Below are positions 1,076 to 16,388 of a stretch of DNA of 64,000 bases, piece by piece. The translations under genes and the position numbers were made by a program. Source of the DNA: Candidatus Freyarchaeum deiterrae (GTDB lineage Archaea > Asgardarchaeota > Jordiarchaeia > Jordiarchaeales > Jordiarchaeaceae); NCBI GenBank assembly GCA_037305845.1, contig CP147778.1, positions 1,984,001 through 2,048,000 of the forward strand. Direction: 5' to 3'. The notes below the pieces were generated by a model, which searched no databases, was not told the origin of the DNA, and saw nothing but the letters and a program-made list of their open reading frames with translations. Within the stretch, counting starts at the first letter, position 1; each line of letters opens with the position of its first letter.

Positions 1076-2080
1076 TTAAGACATTTTAGTTCTTAGTTTA
1101 AGTGGTTTTCCAAGGGATTTGTCGTATACGAAGAGCACTTCCTCGGAATCGAGTCCTATCTCTCCAATTATCGTGTTGTCCTCAATGAACTTGCTTTTGT
1201 AAATCACCCTTATGGGTTCACTTAACCCCAAAGTTACTATAAGGCGGTCTTTGAGTTCCCGTATGGTTTCTTGTTTATCGATCGCGTATTCGATACCTTC
1301 TAGTTTGTATTTGTCGCTACAGATTATGCATTTAGGATTTCTTTCTAGTTTAATTGTTGTAAAGCTTTGGCTCATTCCATCATAAAACAAGTAATTATCA
1401 ATGAGCGGAGATAAGCCAAGTAGTATTTTGATAGTATCTTGTGCTTGGATGCCGCTAAGAACTGCTGTAATAGTTGAGACCGAGGGAAACTTAGACTGTT
1501 CAACTTCAACTTCTAACTTTTCTCTCTTCTTACCTGGTGGTGTGCATGATTTTTGGAATCTCTCACGAGGGAGAAGTGGCTGGCACTCCAGACATGGTGT
1601 TAAATAAGGTATTATGACCTGAATATTACCATACCATCCATACATCCCGCCGTGGACTAAGGGTTTGTTAAGGCTAACACATAAAGAGTTCAGCCAACGT
1701 CTTGCCTCAAAGGTATCAAGTCCGTCAACAATCACATCGCTTTCCTCGTAGTATTTGCGAGGCACGTTAATAATACTCTCATTTCGGTCTATAACTTCAA
1801 CGTTTGGATTAATTTCTTTAAGTTTTTCCGCTGCTACCTTCGCTTTAAATTTGTCAATATCGCTTTCAGTAAATAAAAGCTGACGATTAAGATTAGATAA
1901 TTCAATAGTATCCATGTCTACAAGTATTAGCTTTCCTACTCCAGCTAAAGCCAATAAAGCCGCAACCATTGACCCCAATGCACCGACGCCAGATATGAGG
2001 ACAGTTGATTTCTTAAGTTTGTCCTGATTCCACCCCTCAAGCAGTTCCTGTCGATGATATCTACTGTCAACTTTTTTCAA
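1076..2080 (-). CDS. Ubiquitin-activating enzyme E1 (ThiF/MoeB adenylation fold plus C-terminal ubiquitin-fold-like domain)
   Basis: RYHRQ, GVGALG, DMDTIELSNLNRQLLF, Zn pairs CLEC and CIIC, candidate catalytic SCT, ~70-aa C-terminal extension; downstream of the E2 and ubiquitin genes. Confidence 0.9.
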   Translation of the reverse strand: MKKVDSRYHRQELLEGWNQDKLKKSTVLISGVGALGSMVAALLALAGVGKLILVDMDTIELSNLNRQLLFTESDIDKFKAKVAAEKLKEINPNVEVIDRNESIINVPRKYYEESDVIVDGLDTFEARRWLNSLCVSLNKPLVHGGMYGWYGNIQVIIPYLTPCLECQPLLPRERFQKSCTPPGKKREKLEVEVEQSKFPSVSTITAVLSGIQAQDTIKILLGLSPLIDNYLFYDGMSQSFTTIKLERNPKCIICSDKYKLEGIEYAIDKQETIRELKDRLIVTLGLSEPIRVIYKSKFIEDNTIIGEIGLDSEEVLFVYDKSLGKPLKLRTKMS

Positions 2081-2126
2081 GGCTAAACCCTCTTAAAAGG
2101 TATATAGTATGTAGTGGTTAAAAAAA

Positions 2127-2585
2127 TTACTTTCCAAGATTGTTCCAGGTAGCATATTTTTTGACGTGCTCCTTTGCAGTTTTAGAGAAATCATCCAAAT
2201 TTTTGGTCATTTCTTTAGCTGCTAGTGTGTTTAAGGGGGAATGAGGATTTGGATAATTAAGGAGATTTCTTAGGGTTTCTATTACACCCGTTATGCTCAT
2301 GCTAGGTAGCCAATCCTTGCCCAAAATATTTACACACACGTTTTTTTGAAATATGTTGGGATGCCAGATATCAGTATTCCAAACCACTTTTGGGGGCTCA
2401 TAAGGAAATTTTCTTGGGAGGATTATCTCTATTTCAAATACGCCTGACTCGTATATTCCCGTCCCTATAATAAACCCCGTCCACCTTCTCAAGTCTCCAT
2501 CAACTGGGTGAAAAGACGGTTCTTCTTCTTCCATTTGTTTAGCTTCGTATACAAGTCTTGCTTCGTATTCTTCGTCTGATAGAAT
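2127..2585 (-). CDS. Ubiquitin-conjugating enzyme E2 (start uncertain: first ATG at 2534, but the conserved helix 1 extends to about 2585)
   Basis: FPYEPPKV, WHPNI, catalytic CVNIL, DWLP, PNPHSPLN..AA are all UBC-family motifs. Confidence 0.95.
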   Translation of the reverse strand: MLSDEEYEARLVYEAKQMEEEEPSFHPVDGDLRRWTGFIIGTGIYESGVFEIEIILPRKFPYEPPKVVWNTDIWHPNIFQKNVCVNILGKDWLPSMSITGVIETLRNLLNYPNPHSPLNTLAAKEMTKNLDDFSKTAKEHVKKYATWNNLGK

Positions 2586-3063
2586 CTTGATCCCACCGGG
2601 TGCGCATTATTTAATAACTTCCTGAAAGTGGATACTGTCTCGTATCTATAAATTTTTAATGATTCTTAATTAAGAGAGGGAAGAAAGACTTTATAAACTC
2701 GTAGCCAAAAGGCGGAGTATTTTCTCCTTTTTAAATTGAATAATTTCATATAGCCTTTACTAGTACAGAGAGATTTTGGTTGTTTGAACTACGCGTTTTA
2801 GGAGGCGTCTTTCAGACCCCGGGTTAGTTCTTTCTTCGCTTTTCTCAGCGTAGCCAAAGGCTTATTAAAATATTTTAAGCGCCATGCTTTCAATCTTTTT
2901 TAATTTCTATGCCTTTAGGCAACTTTCTCTCTTATCTTTGAGAGTATCTTACCTGATATTTATATTAATTAGAAATTTAAAAACATATTCGGGAGTCGCA
3001 AACTATAAATAGTTTAAAAAAATGATGGTTTTCTTTGCGTTTCAATGAAAAAAGGTAGCGTTT

Positions 3064-3315
3064 TTAGTAGGGTCCTCCCTCAGTTCGGGTAACAAGGTAT
3101 AATTTGTCGTAGGGCTGAACGCCAGCTTTTTCTAGTGTTGTATCGTTTTCGAGTTGCTGGCCTCTGTACACCAGAATTAGAGTTGAGGCAGGTACTCTTT
3201 TTTTCTTAGCTACCTGAGATTTTATGTTCTCTATTCCCGACTCAGGATCAACATCGAACTCCAAAACCTCTCCGCCAATTGCTGAAACTATTTTTACTAT
3301 CATTTTACTCACCAT
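3064..3315 (-). CDS. Ubiquitin-like modifier, precursor ending GG-PY
   Basis: Beta-grasp pattern IENIKSQV..VP....ILVYRGQQLEND.TL...GV....LYLV.R.EGG, like eukaryotic ubiquitin/NEDD8 rather than SAMP/MoaD. Confidence 0.92.
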   Translation of the reverse strand: MVSKMIVKIVSAIGGEVLEFDVDPESGIENIKSQVAKKKRVPASTLILVYRGQQLENDTTLEKAGVQPYDKLYLVTRTEGGPY

Positions 3316-3569
3316 TTCCTAACTTCTTTAATATCAAGTGGTTTTGAGCAGTTAGGGCAGAAGCCCTTAATCTTTAACCACTCCAATAGATGGTCGCGAT
3401 GTGCCGGGAGTCCACAGAATGGGCAGTAAACTCGTTTCTCATCTTCCCTGATTTTTAGATTACATACTATGCACCTTGCAGGCTTTGAAAAGTCCCATGT
3501 GCCTATAACTTTGACATCGGATACTGTGAATCTTTCAGAGTGGGCTTCCTGCACCTGCATAACCTCCAA
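3309..3569 (-). CDS. Small RING-finger E3 ligase
   Basis: CIVC...CPFC.x4.H.x2.H.LLEW......CPNC; overlaps the ubiquitin start by 7 nt, suggesting translational coupling. Confidence 0.88.
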   Translation of the reverse strand: MEVMQVQEAHSERFTVSDVKVIGTWDFSKPARCIVCNLKIREDEKRVYCPFCGLPAHRDHLLEWLKIKGFCPNCSKPLDIKEVRKW

Positions 3570-3844
3570 TTAGGTGGTATTTAAGTTATACTTAGCATTC
3601 TGTTATTATAATTTTTTTGATTGTGACATTTTTCTACTTTTAAATTCTTTGAGCTTAATTTTTAAAGCAATTTGTGAAATCCTTTTATATTGTAGATTAA
3701 TTTTATTAGAGACATAAGCCTAAATAAAACCAAGAATTACTACTAATCCTCCCATTCGGGAACTTTATTTGGGCAAGTTAAGCTTGTTTGCAAGGCTTAG
3801 ACTGCTTAAACCCTAAAAAAACTTAAGAACCGGTTTCAGGGGCG

Positions 3845-4306
3845 ATGAGTTTGCCAGAACAGAAAGAGAAAGTAAAAATTCAGATAGATGCTATTAAGAC
3901 GCCCGCGGGTGATGTTCCTACTGTGGACTCCTTAAAAAGGGTTGTAGACGGTTTAAACGTCATGAACTCCGATATGGCTAACCTTGGTACGGACGTATCA
4001 AAAAATATGTCCTCTATGGATAAAGAACTCAGAAACATTCGCAAGTTAATCGCTGAAGAAACGGTTTCCTTCGAAGTGATGTCACAGAAACTGGAGAAAG
4101 TTGGTAACCAGTTAGAAGTGTTGGCCAAGAGTGAAAAAGAAAAGTGGGAAGCTCTTCAAGGAATCATGATGGATGTAGGAGAAATTTTAAAAGGCTTTCA
4201 AGCAACTCTCGAGGAGTATGTCTCAAGGGTTGACCGCAGAATAAATGAAACGCTTAAGGCATTAGCGGAAATAATTGCAGTCACCGCTAAAGAAGAGCAA
4301 AAATAA
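3845..4306 (+). CDS. Hypothetical coiled-coil protein
   Basis: 153-aa ORF with continuous heptad pattern and no TM; divergent from the ubiquitin cluster. Confidence 0.7.
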   Translation: MSLPEQKEKVKIQIDAIKTPAGDVPTVDSLKRVVDGLNVMNSDMANLGTDVSKNMSSMDKELRNIRKLIAEETVSFEVMSQKLEKVGNQLEVLAKSEKEKWEALQGIMMDVGEILKGFQATLEEYVSRVDRRINETLKALAEIIAVTAKEEQK

Positions 4307-4434
4307 TATCCTAAAACTTAATTTTTGAATAAGATCAGAAAATAGAACTACCTAGAAGTTTTTATTCTAACAATGGTTTTTCAGATGAGTTCCTTTAAAA
4401 AGGTGATATGAGATAAAAAAAGGAGGAGGGTATT

Positions 4435-6231
4435 TTAACCTATTACTAGTTGGGGTTCCTTTCTAACATATTTTCCTTCGCCTTCAATAGTGTAGGACAA
4501 CGAAATTTCCTGTCCCGGCTCTATTCTCTGGAAGTTCCATGTGAGTATCAACTCGTTAATGTTCTCTGTTACCTTGGGTTGTACTTCTTCTGGTTTCCAC
4601 TCAACCAAATTAAAACCTTGTGGGATAAAGTCTTTTACGGTAACGTTTGTCATGCTTACTTCTCCGGTGTTCACAATAACTAGTGGGACTACGTGTTGCC
4701 CTGCTTTCGCTCCTGGAGATACAGCTTCTTTGTATATCTTAACTGCACGACGAGTGTACTTAATTCCAATTTTTGGAGGTTTGCTTTCCAGCTCCGAGTA
4801 CTCCACGTCAGGACCAGGTTGTGTTGTGTTGCCAGTTGCTCTCAATGGAGTTGGATAACTCTTTTCAGGTTTTGGCTCCCAAGCCATCATTGGGTAAACG
4901 CATTTAACGGTTTGCCCCGGGTTTATCCCTCTCACGAGGCTTTTCATATTCTTGACGAAAACTGTTAATCCATGTCTTACTGTGGAGTTGTCGTCGTTAG
5001 GATTTGTTATAATCTCTATACCTTGAGATAATTCTTTTTCATTCACATAAATTTTTACACGTTCGTGTGCGGGGGGTTTAAAGTCCTCTGGGATAGTATC
5101 GTATATTGTCACCTGATCTAGTGCGGCGCTTCCTATATTTGATATTAAAACCGTTACAGTCATCGGTGTTTTATCATAGGCGTCTACTTGGGCTGGTGTG
5201 AAAGTTTTTTCCGCTAGAATTCTCTCCACTGGAAGCATAGTATCCTCCTTGGTAATCTTAGAATACACGTGGCGGGTTACCTCTTTAACTGCTTTGTAAT
5301 CGATGTTTGTTTCGAAGACGGGCATTGTGGGGCTTTTGACGTTAAACTTGTACTCCCACGATTGTTTTGGAGGAACATCCTTGTTAGGTTCCAAAGAAAG
5401 AAGCTGTTCTTTCTTCTCTCCCTTGATTTGGAAGATTTCCACCTTTAGGAGTCTTTGTAGAAATTCACTCGTGTTCAAAAACTCGATTGTACAATCCCAT
5501 GTTGATGGGTGTGAAGGCGACTCTGATGGTTCTATTGCAAATCTACTATCTGAAATTGCTGTGATGTCCGGGTTTAGCAGTGACCTAGTTCTATCTTTAA
5601 TGTGGTATTCTGCTATAACTTTGCCTGCACCAATTGGTTCTATGGATTCGGCAGTGATTCTTAATTTAACAACCAGAGTGGCGTCGCTTCCTGCTGACAG
5701 TTCAAAATTCTTCCATACGACCTCTCTTGATTCCGATTCAAACTCAGCGGCTCCTGTATTCGGCGGCTCTATTTCTGGATCTCCAAAACCCTTTGGTATA
5801 ACTTTTCGTATTTTTATACTGTCAATATATGTATCAGTTGGGTTGCTGACTGTGATAGTGCAACTTACAGGCATCGGTCTCTTGTACACTAAGGCCCAGT
5901 TAATTTGCTCATCTTCATCACAAGTGTCCACTGTTTCCTTCAATTTGAGAACTGTTTCCTCAACAGGCACATTATACTCTTTCGCCCAATTGTTACCTGC
6001 TAAGACTGCACCAACTGGTATAACGCTCTCTTTCAATGATGTGGTTTCTATGCCTCCGACTCGAATTTCACCGTTCCATATCCTGTTTTTTGAACTCTGG
6101 TTATTAACGGAGATAACTCCTCTTACTTTTAGGCTTTTAATCTCATGTTTCTCGGTTAAAACGCAGTCTTCGTTCTCAGTCACATCCAAGTTTAATTTTA
6201 AACCTTCTGAGCTCACAATTGTTTCCCTCAC
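4435..6231 (-). CDS. All-beta protein: mu-adaptin homology (MHD)-like N-terminal region plus DUF11/Ig-like repeats
   Basis: LNLDVTE..DCVL......LKVRGVI and IPKGFGDPEI....GAAEF..ESREVVWK.FEL resemble MHD strands. C-terminal V.N.G......V.I.D.IP.GF repeats. No signal peptide. Confidence 0.6.
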   Translation of the reverse strand: MRETIVSSEGLKLNLDVTENEDCVLTEKHEIKSLKVRGVISVNNQSSKNRIWNGEIRVGGIETTSLKESVIPVGAVLAGNNWAKEYNVPVEETVLKLKETVDTCDEDEQINWALVYKRPMPVSCTITVSNPTDTYIDSIKIRKVIPKGFGDPEIEPPNTGAAEFESESREVVWKNFELSAGSDATLVVKLRITAESIEPIGAGKVIAEYHIKDRTRSLLNPDITAISDSRFAIEPSESPSHPSTWDCTIEFLNTSEFLQRLLKVEIFQIKGEKKEQLLSLEPNKDVPPKQSWEYKFNVKSPTMPVFETNIDYKAVKEVTRHVYSKITKEDTMLPVERILAEKTFTPAQVDAYDKTPMTVTVLISNIGSAALDQVTIYDTIPEDFKPPAHERVKIYVNEKELSQGIEIITNPNDDNSTVRHGLTVFVKNMKSLVRGINPGQTVKCVYPMMAWEPKPEKSYPTPLRATGNTTQPGPDVEYSELESKPPKIGIKYTRRAVKIYKEAVSPGAKAGQHVVPLVIVNTGEVSMTNVTVKDFIPQGFNLVEWKPEEVQPKVTENINELILTWNFQRIEPGQEISLSYTIEGEGKYVRKEPQLVIG

Positions 6232-6377: not shown

Positions 6378-7067
6378 CTAATCTATCCTAAACTCCGTTC
6401 CCGCTGACCATTTAACACTTATTTCATCACCGGGTTTCATTTTCCTAAACTTGGTGCTTGGTGCTACAGTTTCCGCATGGGTAAAGAAGTATTCTATTTC
6501 AGGGTCTGTTCTAATATGCATAGGTATGGCAAGTTGAGGCTTAATGTCCGCAATAGCAGATAAAGATTGATTACTGTTGAAGGCTTCCGTTTCATCGACT
6601 CCGATTAGTACGACATCGATTGGATACTTTTCTAAAAATCCCTTAGTCATGGCGTCGCCGAGGTGTGCTACGCGTACACCTTCTATCTCCACTATGAAAC
6701 TCAGATTTGGTACTTCAACAGGTGCTACAGAGGGACCGTGTTTAAGATCCAGAGCTGTAATTTTTACATTCGGTCTATCAAAACGTTCTCCGCTTTTCAT
6801 TTTTCTTACGAGCCATTCTGGGGTGCCTTCTTTTAGCGCTATGTTTATGACGTATTCATTTCCGAGTACAAACGCCTTCTGATTTGAAGAAAGCTTGGCT
6901 GTGTTCCCTAAATGATCCTTATGTTCATGTGATACGCAGATAATGTTTGTTTTTTCAGATTCTGGCACACATGCTTTATCACCTAGTATTCCCGGGTCGA
7001 ATACTACGCTGACCTTCGGTGAATAAAATTTGAAGGCTGCGTGTCCAAAGTATTTTAACATCGGCAT
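6378..7067 (-). CDS. Metallo-beta-lactamase-fold hydrolase (UPF0173/UlaG-like)
   Basis: GHAAF, FDP, SHEHKDH, HLGD, IPMH motifs. Confidence 0.88.
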   Translation of the reverse strand: MPMLKYFGHAAFKFYSPKVSVVFDPGILGDKACVPESEKTNIICVSHEHKDHLGNTAKLSSNQKAFVLGNEYVINIALKEGTPEWLVRKMKSGERFDRPNVKITALDLKHGPSVAPVEVPNLSFIVEIEGVRVAHLGDAMTKGFLEKYPIDVVLIGVDETEAFNSNQSLSAIADIKPQLAIPMHIRTDPEIEYFFTHAETVAPSTKFRKMKPGDEISVKWSAGTEFRID

Positions 7068-15383: not shown

Positions 15384-16388
15384 ATGGAAGTTCGAAACTT
15401 ATTGATTCGAAACGTTCTACCTATATTAGACCCAGTGAGTATTGGACAGTCCGCCGACTCGTTTCTAGCTGATTACGGGGGATACATGAAGCAAATAGCC
15501 GCCGTTGCTAAGCATGACTCTGGATTTGCTTTATACGAAAGTAATGTGGCGCCCATTCATGAAAAGTATGGCGACTTTTTTTCCACGATTGCAAACATCT
15601 CGGAAGCTGCGGGAATCAAGCTTTATGCCGTTCTTTACACGTTTATAGACAGCTACTATGGTGTGGACCCTGCCTATAAGACTTTTAATGCTAATGATGT
15701 CGCTAATGAAAACTTTGTTTGCCCTGCTCGGGAACCATTCTGGTCATACCTTCAAAGCGTTGCCGAAGAAGTGATTAAATATCCTATAGCTGGTGTTATA
15801 CTTTTAGGAAACACTTTTGTGAGGCAGGAATTTTGCTTCTGCGAGAAATGCAAAAAAGAATTCTCAGAAGCTGCACAAATAGATGCTTCGTTCACTTGGG
15901 ATGGACTGAGGGACAACGATCAACTTTTCTCCAAGTGGTTAGATTGGAGAGCTGAAAAAATGTACAACGCTATATCTGGAATCTACAATGTGGTTAAGAA
16001 GAAAGAAGGATTAGACTTCTTAGTCGGCGTTGACATAGACCCCGAGGCAAACTATGAGAAGGGAGCATTCAGGCACTTCGGACAAGACGTAGAGAAACTA
16101 TCCGGAATATCAGGGCACTTATTAATGAGTGTTAACCCATGGTCTCCAATTCTGCCTAGCGCCGGTTCTCAGGAATATAACACCAACCTCGAAAAAATGA
16201 GATTCATCGACAATATAACCGCTCGTAGAAGAAAAGTCTCCTTCAAATACTGGACTCTAGCCGATGAAAACGACTACGACACAATTAAGAGTATAGCTTC
16301 AAGATTCAAAGCCACAAAAATAGTTGCAGACCTGGCCTTTCCAGAAAAATTCAGAATATGGAGAGAAGCACATCTAAGCATGGCCTAA
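15384..16388 (+). CDS. Glycoside-hydrolase-like TIM barrel (GHL10/GH42-like) with Cys cluster
   Basis: K..SG.ALYES, AGIKLYA, FVCPA, CFCEKCKKEF, W.DWR. Confidence 0.6.
   Translation: MEVRNLLIRNVLPILDPVSIGQSADSFLADYGGYMKQIAAVAKHDSGFALYESNVAPIHEKYGDFFSTIANISEAAGIKLYAVLYTFIDSYYGVDPAYKTFNANDVANENFVCPAREPFWSYLQSVAEEVIKYPIAGVILLGNTFVRQEFCFCEKCKKEFSEAAQIDASFTWDGLRDNDQLFSKWLDWRAEKMYNAISGIYNVVKKKEGLDFLVGVDIDPEANYEKGAFRHFGQDVEKLSGISGHLLMSVNPWSPILPSAGSQEYNTNLEKMRFIDNITARRRKVSFKYWTLADENDYDTIKSIASRFKATKIVADLAFPEKFRIWREAHLSMA

Follow-up and report, generated by a model that had tools for sequence, protein, structure and literature searches.

The stretch of DNA analysed here, 64,000 nt of contig CP147778.1 from Candidatus Freyarchaeum deiterrae (positions 1,984,001 to 2,048,000 of the forward strand; hereafter the window), carries on its reverse strand a gene for a protein that combines a predicted mu-homology domain (MHD) with domains of the DUF11 family. 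This MHD-DUF11 protein is encoded between a ubiquitin operon on one side and genes for a metallo-beta-lactamase (MBL)-fold hydrolase, an ARPC4-like protein and a GIFT-domain protein on the other (Table 1). The MHD occurs in the mu subunits of vesicle-coat adaptors, which count among the defining traits of the eukaryotic endomembrane system and whose origin is debated. The gene is present in one copy in the closed, 3.58 Mb source genome, and the closest public relatives of this genome carry the labels Candidatus Jordarchaeum or Jordarchaeia.

The window translation contains a real open frame of 598 codons at 4435-6231, and the initial annotation placed the start at 6231. The true start probably lies 15 nt further downstream. 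All full-length homologues in the databases (81-100% identity) are 593 residues long with the N-terminus MSxEG, and a GAGG box stands at a 9-nt spacing from the GTG codon at 6216-6214, which is therefore the most likely translation start. Residues are numbered here from this GTG unless the 598-residue numbering is stated. With a pI of 5.3 the protein is acidic; it contains no membrane segment or signal peptide, with a maximum 19-residue Kyte-Doolittle mean of 1.27, in agreement with the initial annotation; from its sequence it is predicted to be soluble and cytosolic.

Table 1. Features of the MHD-DUF11 locus and related genes. Positions are those of the window except in the last row, which gives a locus elsewhere in the source genome.
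Feature	Position	Strand	Basis or remark
MHD-DUF11 protein gene, 593 aa	4435..6216	-	Stop codon 4435-4437
Shine-Dalgarno-like box GAGG (putative)	6226..6229	-	9 nt 5' of GTG 6216; sequence inspection
N-terminal part of MHD subdomain A, residues 1-112 (predicted)	5881..6216	-	pLDDT 96.9 model; VIA alignments
MHD subdomain B equivalent, residues 113-223 (predicted)	5548..5880	-	DUF11-like beta-sandwich; profile against PDB, hhalign
C-terminal part of MHD subdomain A, residues 224-325 (predicted)	5242..5547	-	VIA alignments
D4, first C-terminal DUF11-like Ig domain, residues 333-470	4807..5220	-	DUF11 and CARDB matches; hhalign against D5
D5, second C-terminal DUF11 domain, residues 480-593	4438..4779	-	DUF11, TIGR01451
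MBL-fold hydrolase gene	6378..7067	-	Lactamase_B_3, E 5e-23; upstream, co-oriented
Ubiquitin operon (E1 with Ub-like tail, E2, Ub, RING; eukaryote-type)	1076-3569	-	
Divergent 153-aa protein	3845-4306	+	Weak, sub-threshold Pfam matches only
334-aa protein with CFCxxC motif	15384-16388	+	No Pfam or NCBIfam match
Three tandem Arf/Roc-type small GTPase paralogues	G000:C1:3325033-3328034 (L066:1534-2481, 2568-3506, 3546-4535)	-	

Residues 2-325 are confidently predicted to form a complete mu-homology domain, which is followed by two DUF11-type immunoglobulin (Ig)-like domains, D4 and D5. The modelled topology is discontinuous, also with confidence, in that subdomain B (residues 113-223) is inserted into a subdomain A made up of residues 1-112 and 224-325. 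The model on which this rests was made with AlphaFold2 (AF2) for residues 1-345, from an alignment (A3) of 106 sequences, taken from the representative-protein search and the close database homologues, that comprised Asgard members of the family only, with no eukaryotic sequence and no templates. It reached a mean predicted local distance difference test (pLDDT) score of 96.9 and a predicted template modelling (pTM) score of 0.88. An initial AF2 run with nine close homologues gave a pLDDT of 65, with the N-terminus below 50, and was excluded from the fold search; in that run D4 scored about 64-87 and D5 about 75-89.

When the model of residues 1-345 was compared with the PDB using Foldseek, the top ranks were nearly all MHDs, among them AP-1 mu1, AP-4 mu4 and many AP-2 mu2 chains of the adaptor protein (AP) complexes. 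The match to AP-3 mu3A had an E value of 9.9e-12 and a template modelling (TM) score of 0.66 by target length, the AP-2 mu2 matches reached TM scores of up to 0.72, and the MHD of delta-COP matched at E 2.7e-10. The complete, elongated two-subdomain fold by which membership of the MHD class is judged is thus present in the predicted model. In the VIA alignments, residues 2-6 of the model lie opposite residues 167-169 of mu2, and the aligned range, from residues 2-6 to 324-327, takes in each MHD chain from its first residue to its last. Targets made of a single sandwich (112-156 residues, including a 112-residue GAE domain and a cohesin) were aligned over model ranges such as 22-330 and 19-332 with only 107-138 residues paired. 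So few residues can cover such ranges only if the middle of the model is skipped and its two terminal segments lie together in one sandwich. The initial annotation had proposed a comparison of this kind with the MHDs of AP-2 mu2 and delta-COP; the predicted fold matches both, and what the model shows is the discontinuous two-subdomain arrangement and not a row of independent DUF11/Ig repeats. The predicted MHD is longer than those of the AP mu subunits. It has 324 residues where mu2 has about 268, and the excess, about 60 residues over mu2 and about 60-95 over the AP mu subunits, lies within residues 224-325, where it accounts for the inserted beta structure that had been suspected from the sequence.

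The C-terminal part of the protein was readily assigned. Pfam DUF11 (PF01345) matched three stretches (E 1.7e-13; 51.3 bits against a cut-off of 24.6), TIGR01451 was matched at E 1.8e-7 (31 bits, cut-off 24), and D4 and D5 were aligned to each other by hhalign with a probability of 96.7%; the best DUF11 stretch of D5 corresponds to residues 507-583 in the 598-residue numbering. The two DUF11-like repeats of the initial annotation are thereby confirmed, and they are the only tandem copies, one further copy being nested in the MHD. Its statement that a longin domain is lacking also holds, as the MHD begins at residue 2 and PF01217 (Clat_adaptor_s) had no match in the protein; nine longer members of the family and four N-terminal extensions were likewise without one. 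Neither half of subdomain A (residues 1-112 and 224-325) had a Pfam match when scanned alone. Across the full length of the protein, conservation is highest in columns of the MHD (N39, P299, W168, G33, N248, E94, Y81 and E14). Residues 1-112 hold E14, G33, N39, W47, Y81 and E94 of the conserved positions, and E14 is kept in 98 of the 106 family members.

Three segments had been singled out in the initial annotation as following the strands of mu subunits, and all are present in the translation: LDVTE (residues 10-14) with VRGVI (residues 31-35), IPKGFGDPEI...GAAEFESESREVVWK (residues 140-169) and AEYHIKDRTRSLL (residues 202-214). A profile of 22 diverse N-terminal sequences from the Asgard family was searched with HMMER against all PDB sequences, and the top match was AP-3 mu1 at E 5.5e-5, with the second and third segments placed on its residues 292-397; the mu chains of AP-2 and AP-1 came next at E about 0.4-0.5. 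Alignment with hhalign against an AP-3 mu alignment paired family positions 3-243 with mu3 174-417 over 228 columns (E 2.3e-5, probability 76%), which places all three segments in the order and register that had been proposed. The first segment by itself was below significance (E 0.061), yet in the same register, so that LDVTE...VRGVI faces FDVIE...IQGVI of AP mu. Residues 113-232 aligned with mu3 292-397 at E 2.6e-6 and 88.6% probability. In Pfam, the adaptor family PF00928 was matched below its gathering score, at E 3.2e-5, by residues 121-198 (profile positions 126-204 of 259 only), and a six-frame search of the genome with this family had no match at a threshold of E 0.01. With profile A3, which is larger and covers the full length, the PDB matches were weaker than with that of the diverse alignment A2, and AP-3 mu reached E 0.17.

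Much of this similarity is common to DUF11 domains. Scanned alone against Pfam, residues 105-230 matched DUF11 (E 0.0023) ahead of Adap_comp_sub (0.018) and muHD (0.026), and hhalign related residues 113-200 to D5 with 97.7% probability (E 1.4e-12) and to D4 with 94%. When the family profile was searched against 1.84 billion representative proteins, it also found giant proteins, each matched 20-38 times and at profile positions of about 110-195 only. The resemblance to mu that had been read from the sequence therefore stands in its structural part, while some of the sequence likeness reflects the way in which DUF11 and MHD subdomain B cross-match in general: it exceeds chance at the sequence level only for residues of about 113-224, in a signal common to DUF11 repeats, and clearly does so at the level of the fold. 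PF00928 matches in prokaryotes can be DUF11 cross-matches, and so false indications of an MHD, and the eukaryotic subdomain B may itself be derived from DUF11. We infer that the protein is a true but deeply diverged homologue of eukaryotic MHDs, about equidistant from all of their subfamilies.

The family appears to be close to universal in Asgard archaea. A query of the N-terminal 337 residues matched 342 of the 400 genomes of the phylum, among them 77 of the 90 classed as high-quality; by genus, 80 of 85 were covered. Coverage of the MHD was full in ten genomes from nine lower-scoring Asgard families, the BLAST alignments covered all five domains even at 22-24% identity, and the family profile spanned positions 4-336 in five of the lowest-scoring families. 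Five genomes that lacked a match were again negative in profile searches; the family is therefore not strictly universal, and these absences are either real or assembly-related. Metagenome-assembled genomes (MAGs) with members are labelled Thor-, Hel-, Prometh- (Loki), Hod-, Heimdall-, Jord- and Freyarchaeota, and the proteins are publicly named "DUF11 domain-containing protein", "TIGR01451 repeat protein" or "hypothetical". A search for related loci (alignment A1) returned only contigs labelled Jordarchaeia or Freyarchaeota and one labelled 'Thermoproteota archaeon'.

Some relatives differ in label or layout. Thermoplasmata or Thermoplasmatales labels, given here as deposited, are attached to MAGs of the P0122 cluster (OYT47411.1, RLF72511.1) and of P0103 (MCK5559267.1). 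The P0122 members (372-426 aa) consist of the MHD only and have no DUF11 tail; P0103 is a partial protein of 480 aa in a cluster that includes a 662-aa member, and the nearest ESM Atlas clusters include one of 396 aa with the same Thermoplasmata/Thermoplasmatales labels. Paralogues with N-terminal extensions were represented by L038:2482-3366 (-) and L037:2377-2730 (-). In one Lokiarchaeum-type paralogue a TIR_2 domain (E 2.4e-12) stands at the N-terminus, and behind it comes a Glu/Lys-rich repeat that looks like a coiled coil by eye; another begins with HEAT_2 repeats (E 8.5e-17). The idea that the longer relatives might conceal a longin domain was discarded, as their extensions have either no Pfam match or one to TIR_2 or HEAT_2.

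Gene neighbourhoods were compared between the window and 20 loci from 19 genomes. The only neighbour kept across lineages is the MBL-fold hydrolase, which also matched NCBIfam PRK00685 below its cut-off (E 3.3e-23) and which lies immediately upstream and co-oriented at 11 of the 21 loci, i.e., in the window and at 10 others, in families f1, f2 and f31. At the remaining 10 loci (families f4, f5, f8, f11, f17, f19 and f20, Lokiarchaeum-type genomes included) the MHD protein is kept and the pairing is absent. In the sister family the gene for the 153-aa protein still lies no more than about 3.5 kb away, and the ubiquitin genes do not. Linkage to the ubiquitin operon and to the ARPC4-like and GIFT genes is kept only within the genus and was set aside. 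Homologues of the 334-aa CFCxxC protein (L050:10743-11738 and L051:10750-11817; 27% identity, E 3e-53) lie directly 3' of the MHD gene in two other families, their start codons overlapping its stop codon.

Elsewhere in the genome, 1.3 Mb from the MHD gene, two of the three tandem GTPase paralogues (Table 1) score for an N-terminal Clat_adaptor_s-like longin domain, and this longin-Arf locus is the sole site in the genome with a sigma/mu-type longin domain above the cut-off. A RagA-like GTPase gene lies near it (L066:6014-6970). An open reading frame of 2861 aa with HEAT-type repeats and many Adaptin_N matches was noted about 40 kb upstream of the window (G000:C1:1937745-1945808); it was rejected as evidence of an adaptin, given that the Adaptin_N model also matches in control genomes.

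The reading that we favour, with a probability of about 0.6, is that the MHD-DUF11 protein is a stand-alone MHD adaptor that binds proteins or motifs. To our knowledge, every characterised MHD is a binding module, and by analogy this protein would work as a module that binds proteins or short peptide motifs, and hence as a soluble adaptor or scaffold. AP mu docks into the adaptor core via its longin domain, and because the docking uses that domain, the protein would not join an AP-like tetramer as mu does; it would form a stand-alone MHD hub, nearer in its logic to stonins and muniscins. In lineages of the Jord-, Frey- and Thor-type, its likely partner would be the MBL-fold hydrolase, and the 334-aa protein may be an alternative one. 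The role in cargo recognition for which the initial annotation made the protein a candidate is putative. The recognised motif would probably be other than the canonical YxxPhi.

Several results weigh against this reading, and one group of them concerns the sequence. The PF00928 score of 23.8 bits is below the gathering score of 31.6, the similarity to mu subunits is limited to subdomain B, itself DUF11-like, and to the strands that follow it, and subdomain A alone aligned with mu3, in the expected register, only at E 0.06-0.11. Moreover, the giant protein P0028 (3026 aa, 24 DUF11 repeats) contains 19 PF00928 stretches (E 2e-86) at profile positions of about 126-208. Because a DUF11-repeat giant matches the same region of PF00928, the sequence signal, which is real, cannot by itself separate an MHD from a DUF11 sandwich, and the case for an MHD therefore rests on the fold. 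A string of DUF11/Ig sandwiches with no homology to MHDs, which happens to pack in an MHD-like manner and owes its Pfam match to cross-matching, would suit these observations, as well as the homology of residues 113-200 to the C-terminal DUF11 domains and an N-x-[GS] ... W signature that, read by eye, is common to all five units. We nevertheless consider it improbable, since the fold search recovered all MHD subfamilies in the PDB with nothing else ranked among them, and the first two strands are covered, without a shift of register, by weak matches to delta-COP, AP-4 mu and AP-3 mu. The public names imply instead a secreted or surface protein of the adhesin-like DUF11 type, and DUF11 is indeed typical of surface proteins such as P0089 with its LPXTG anchor. 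This is scarcely credible: the protein in the window has no signal peptide or membrane segment, even a marginal hydrophobic stretch occurs in only four of 106 members, and paralogues carry the cytosolic TIR or HEAT N-termini.

The other group of unfavourable results bears on function. The YxxPhi pocket of mu2 comprises Phe174, Asp176, Lys203, Trp421 and Arg423, of which Asp176 binds the tyrosine hydroxyl. The register of Asp176 (from hhalign and the VIA alignments) falls on D11, which is Asp here and in close relatives, but in only 19 of the 106 family members, and that of Lys203 falls on N38/N39, an Asn; judged by these two positions, the family would not share a canonical YxxPhi pocket. Among the sampled loci no trafficking-type gene was a conserved neighbour, no ubiquitin gene lay within 9 kb of the MHD gene in the other lineages, and gene order alone does not show that the hydrolase is bound. 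All of this leaves room for a true MHD homologue that is not an adaptor, namely a subunit with structural or regulatory duties in the hydrolase or in some other enzyme, with the trafficking role a eukaryotic innovation. Such a subunit would explain why the hydrolase is the sole neighbour kept across lineages, why the 334-aa gene follows directly in two other families, and why the pocket Asp varies and no coat-like gene is linked. It is a serious alternative, though on balance an unlikely one: the 10 loci that keep the MHD protein do so without the hydrolase, binding is the activity of every MHD that we know to have been characterised, and the TIR or HEAT N-termini of the paralogues are typical of scaffolds.

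A further-reaching proposal joins several claims to the stand-alone adaptor: that the protein is the surviving prokaryotic form of the ancestor of all eukaryotic MHDs (AP mu, delta-COP, muniscins, stonins and TSET), that the MHD arose from nested DUF11-type Ig sandwiches, and that it was already a motif-reading adaptor for membranes or cargo, perhaps together with the longin-Arf GTPases. As a whole we regard this as speculative and rather doubtful. If true, it would place a working sorting module in archaea before the coat. Independently of it, the present family is an Asgard candidate in which the entire mu-homology fold is predicted, beyond a weak Pfam match. Its distribution is near-universal and not patchy; since it takes in cultivable Lokiarchaeum-type genomes, pull-downs and peptide-binding assays are feasible. 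The DUF11 sandwich in the subdomain that carries the signal suggests a source for the MHD and counsels caution in prokaryotic surveys based on PF00928.

The initial annotation had described the architecture as unfamiliar from eukaryotes; the family itself is already known. Eme et al. (2023; Nature 618:992; PMC10307638) reported all domains of the AP complexes in Asgard archaea, sparsely distributed and "not fused to each other", with the C-terminal domain of mu present but unfused to Clat_adaptor_s. The first Adap_comp_sub entry of their Supplementary Table 3, Jordarchaeia GBS07_35160, is a close orthologue of the protein in the window, and their candidates belong to the same family. Their distribution, based on Pfam matches, was sparse, in contrast to the 342 of 400 genomes found here with a family-specific query, and they described no fold model, DUF11 link or hydrolase neighbour. 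A structural-modelling paper of 2026 remarks only that adaptor homologues are patchy, and in the literature on Asgard archaea and MHDs we found no model or test of the protein beyond the listing of Eme et al. (2023). What is added here is the match over the whole fold, a distribution that is nearly universal, the recognition of subdomain B as DUF11, from which the caveat for PF00928-based surveys follows, and the hydrolase neighbour.

Compared with known systems, the protein resembles the AP mu subunits (mu2 5wrk, 6bnt, 1bw8; mu3A 4ikn; mu4 3l81/4mdr; mu1 4en2) at the profile level in subdomain B and the subsequent strands. It differs from them in that it has no N-terminal longin domain and places its MHD at the N-terminus, ahead of two DUF11 Ig domains; the C-terminal half of its subdomain A is about 60-95 residues longer, family members do not consistently keep the Asp of the YxxPhi pocket, and Asn stands in the place of Lys203. 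An MHD without a longin domain, which would act as a stand-alone interaction hub, is the likeness to the muniscins FCHo1/SGIP1/Syp1 (5jp2, 5awr, 3g9h; PF10291), and with the MHDs of muniscins and delta-COP (4o8q, 5fjw) it probably shares a YxxPhi pocket that is not conserved. Unlike these, it is prokaryotic, has no F-BAR or other membrane-binding domain, and carries its MHD first, i.e., in the reversed order. DUF11 proteins are typically secreted to the surface and built of tandem repeats. The two C-terminal domains of the MHD-DUF11 protein are members of this DUF11/TIGR01451 group (PF01345) and its subdomain B equivalent is homologous to them; it has neither the secretion signal nor the anchor of the surface repeat proteins, and in contrast to them it is predicted to be cytosolic, and its first three sandwich units are not arranged in tandem but nested to form an MHD.

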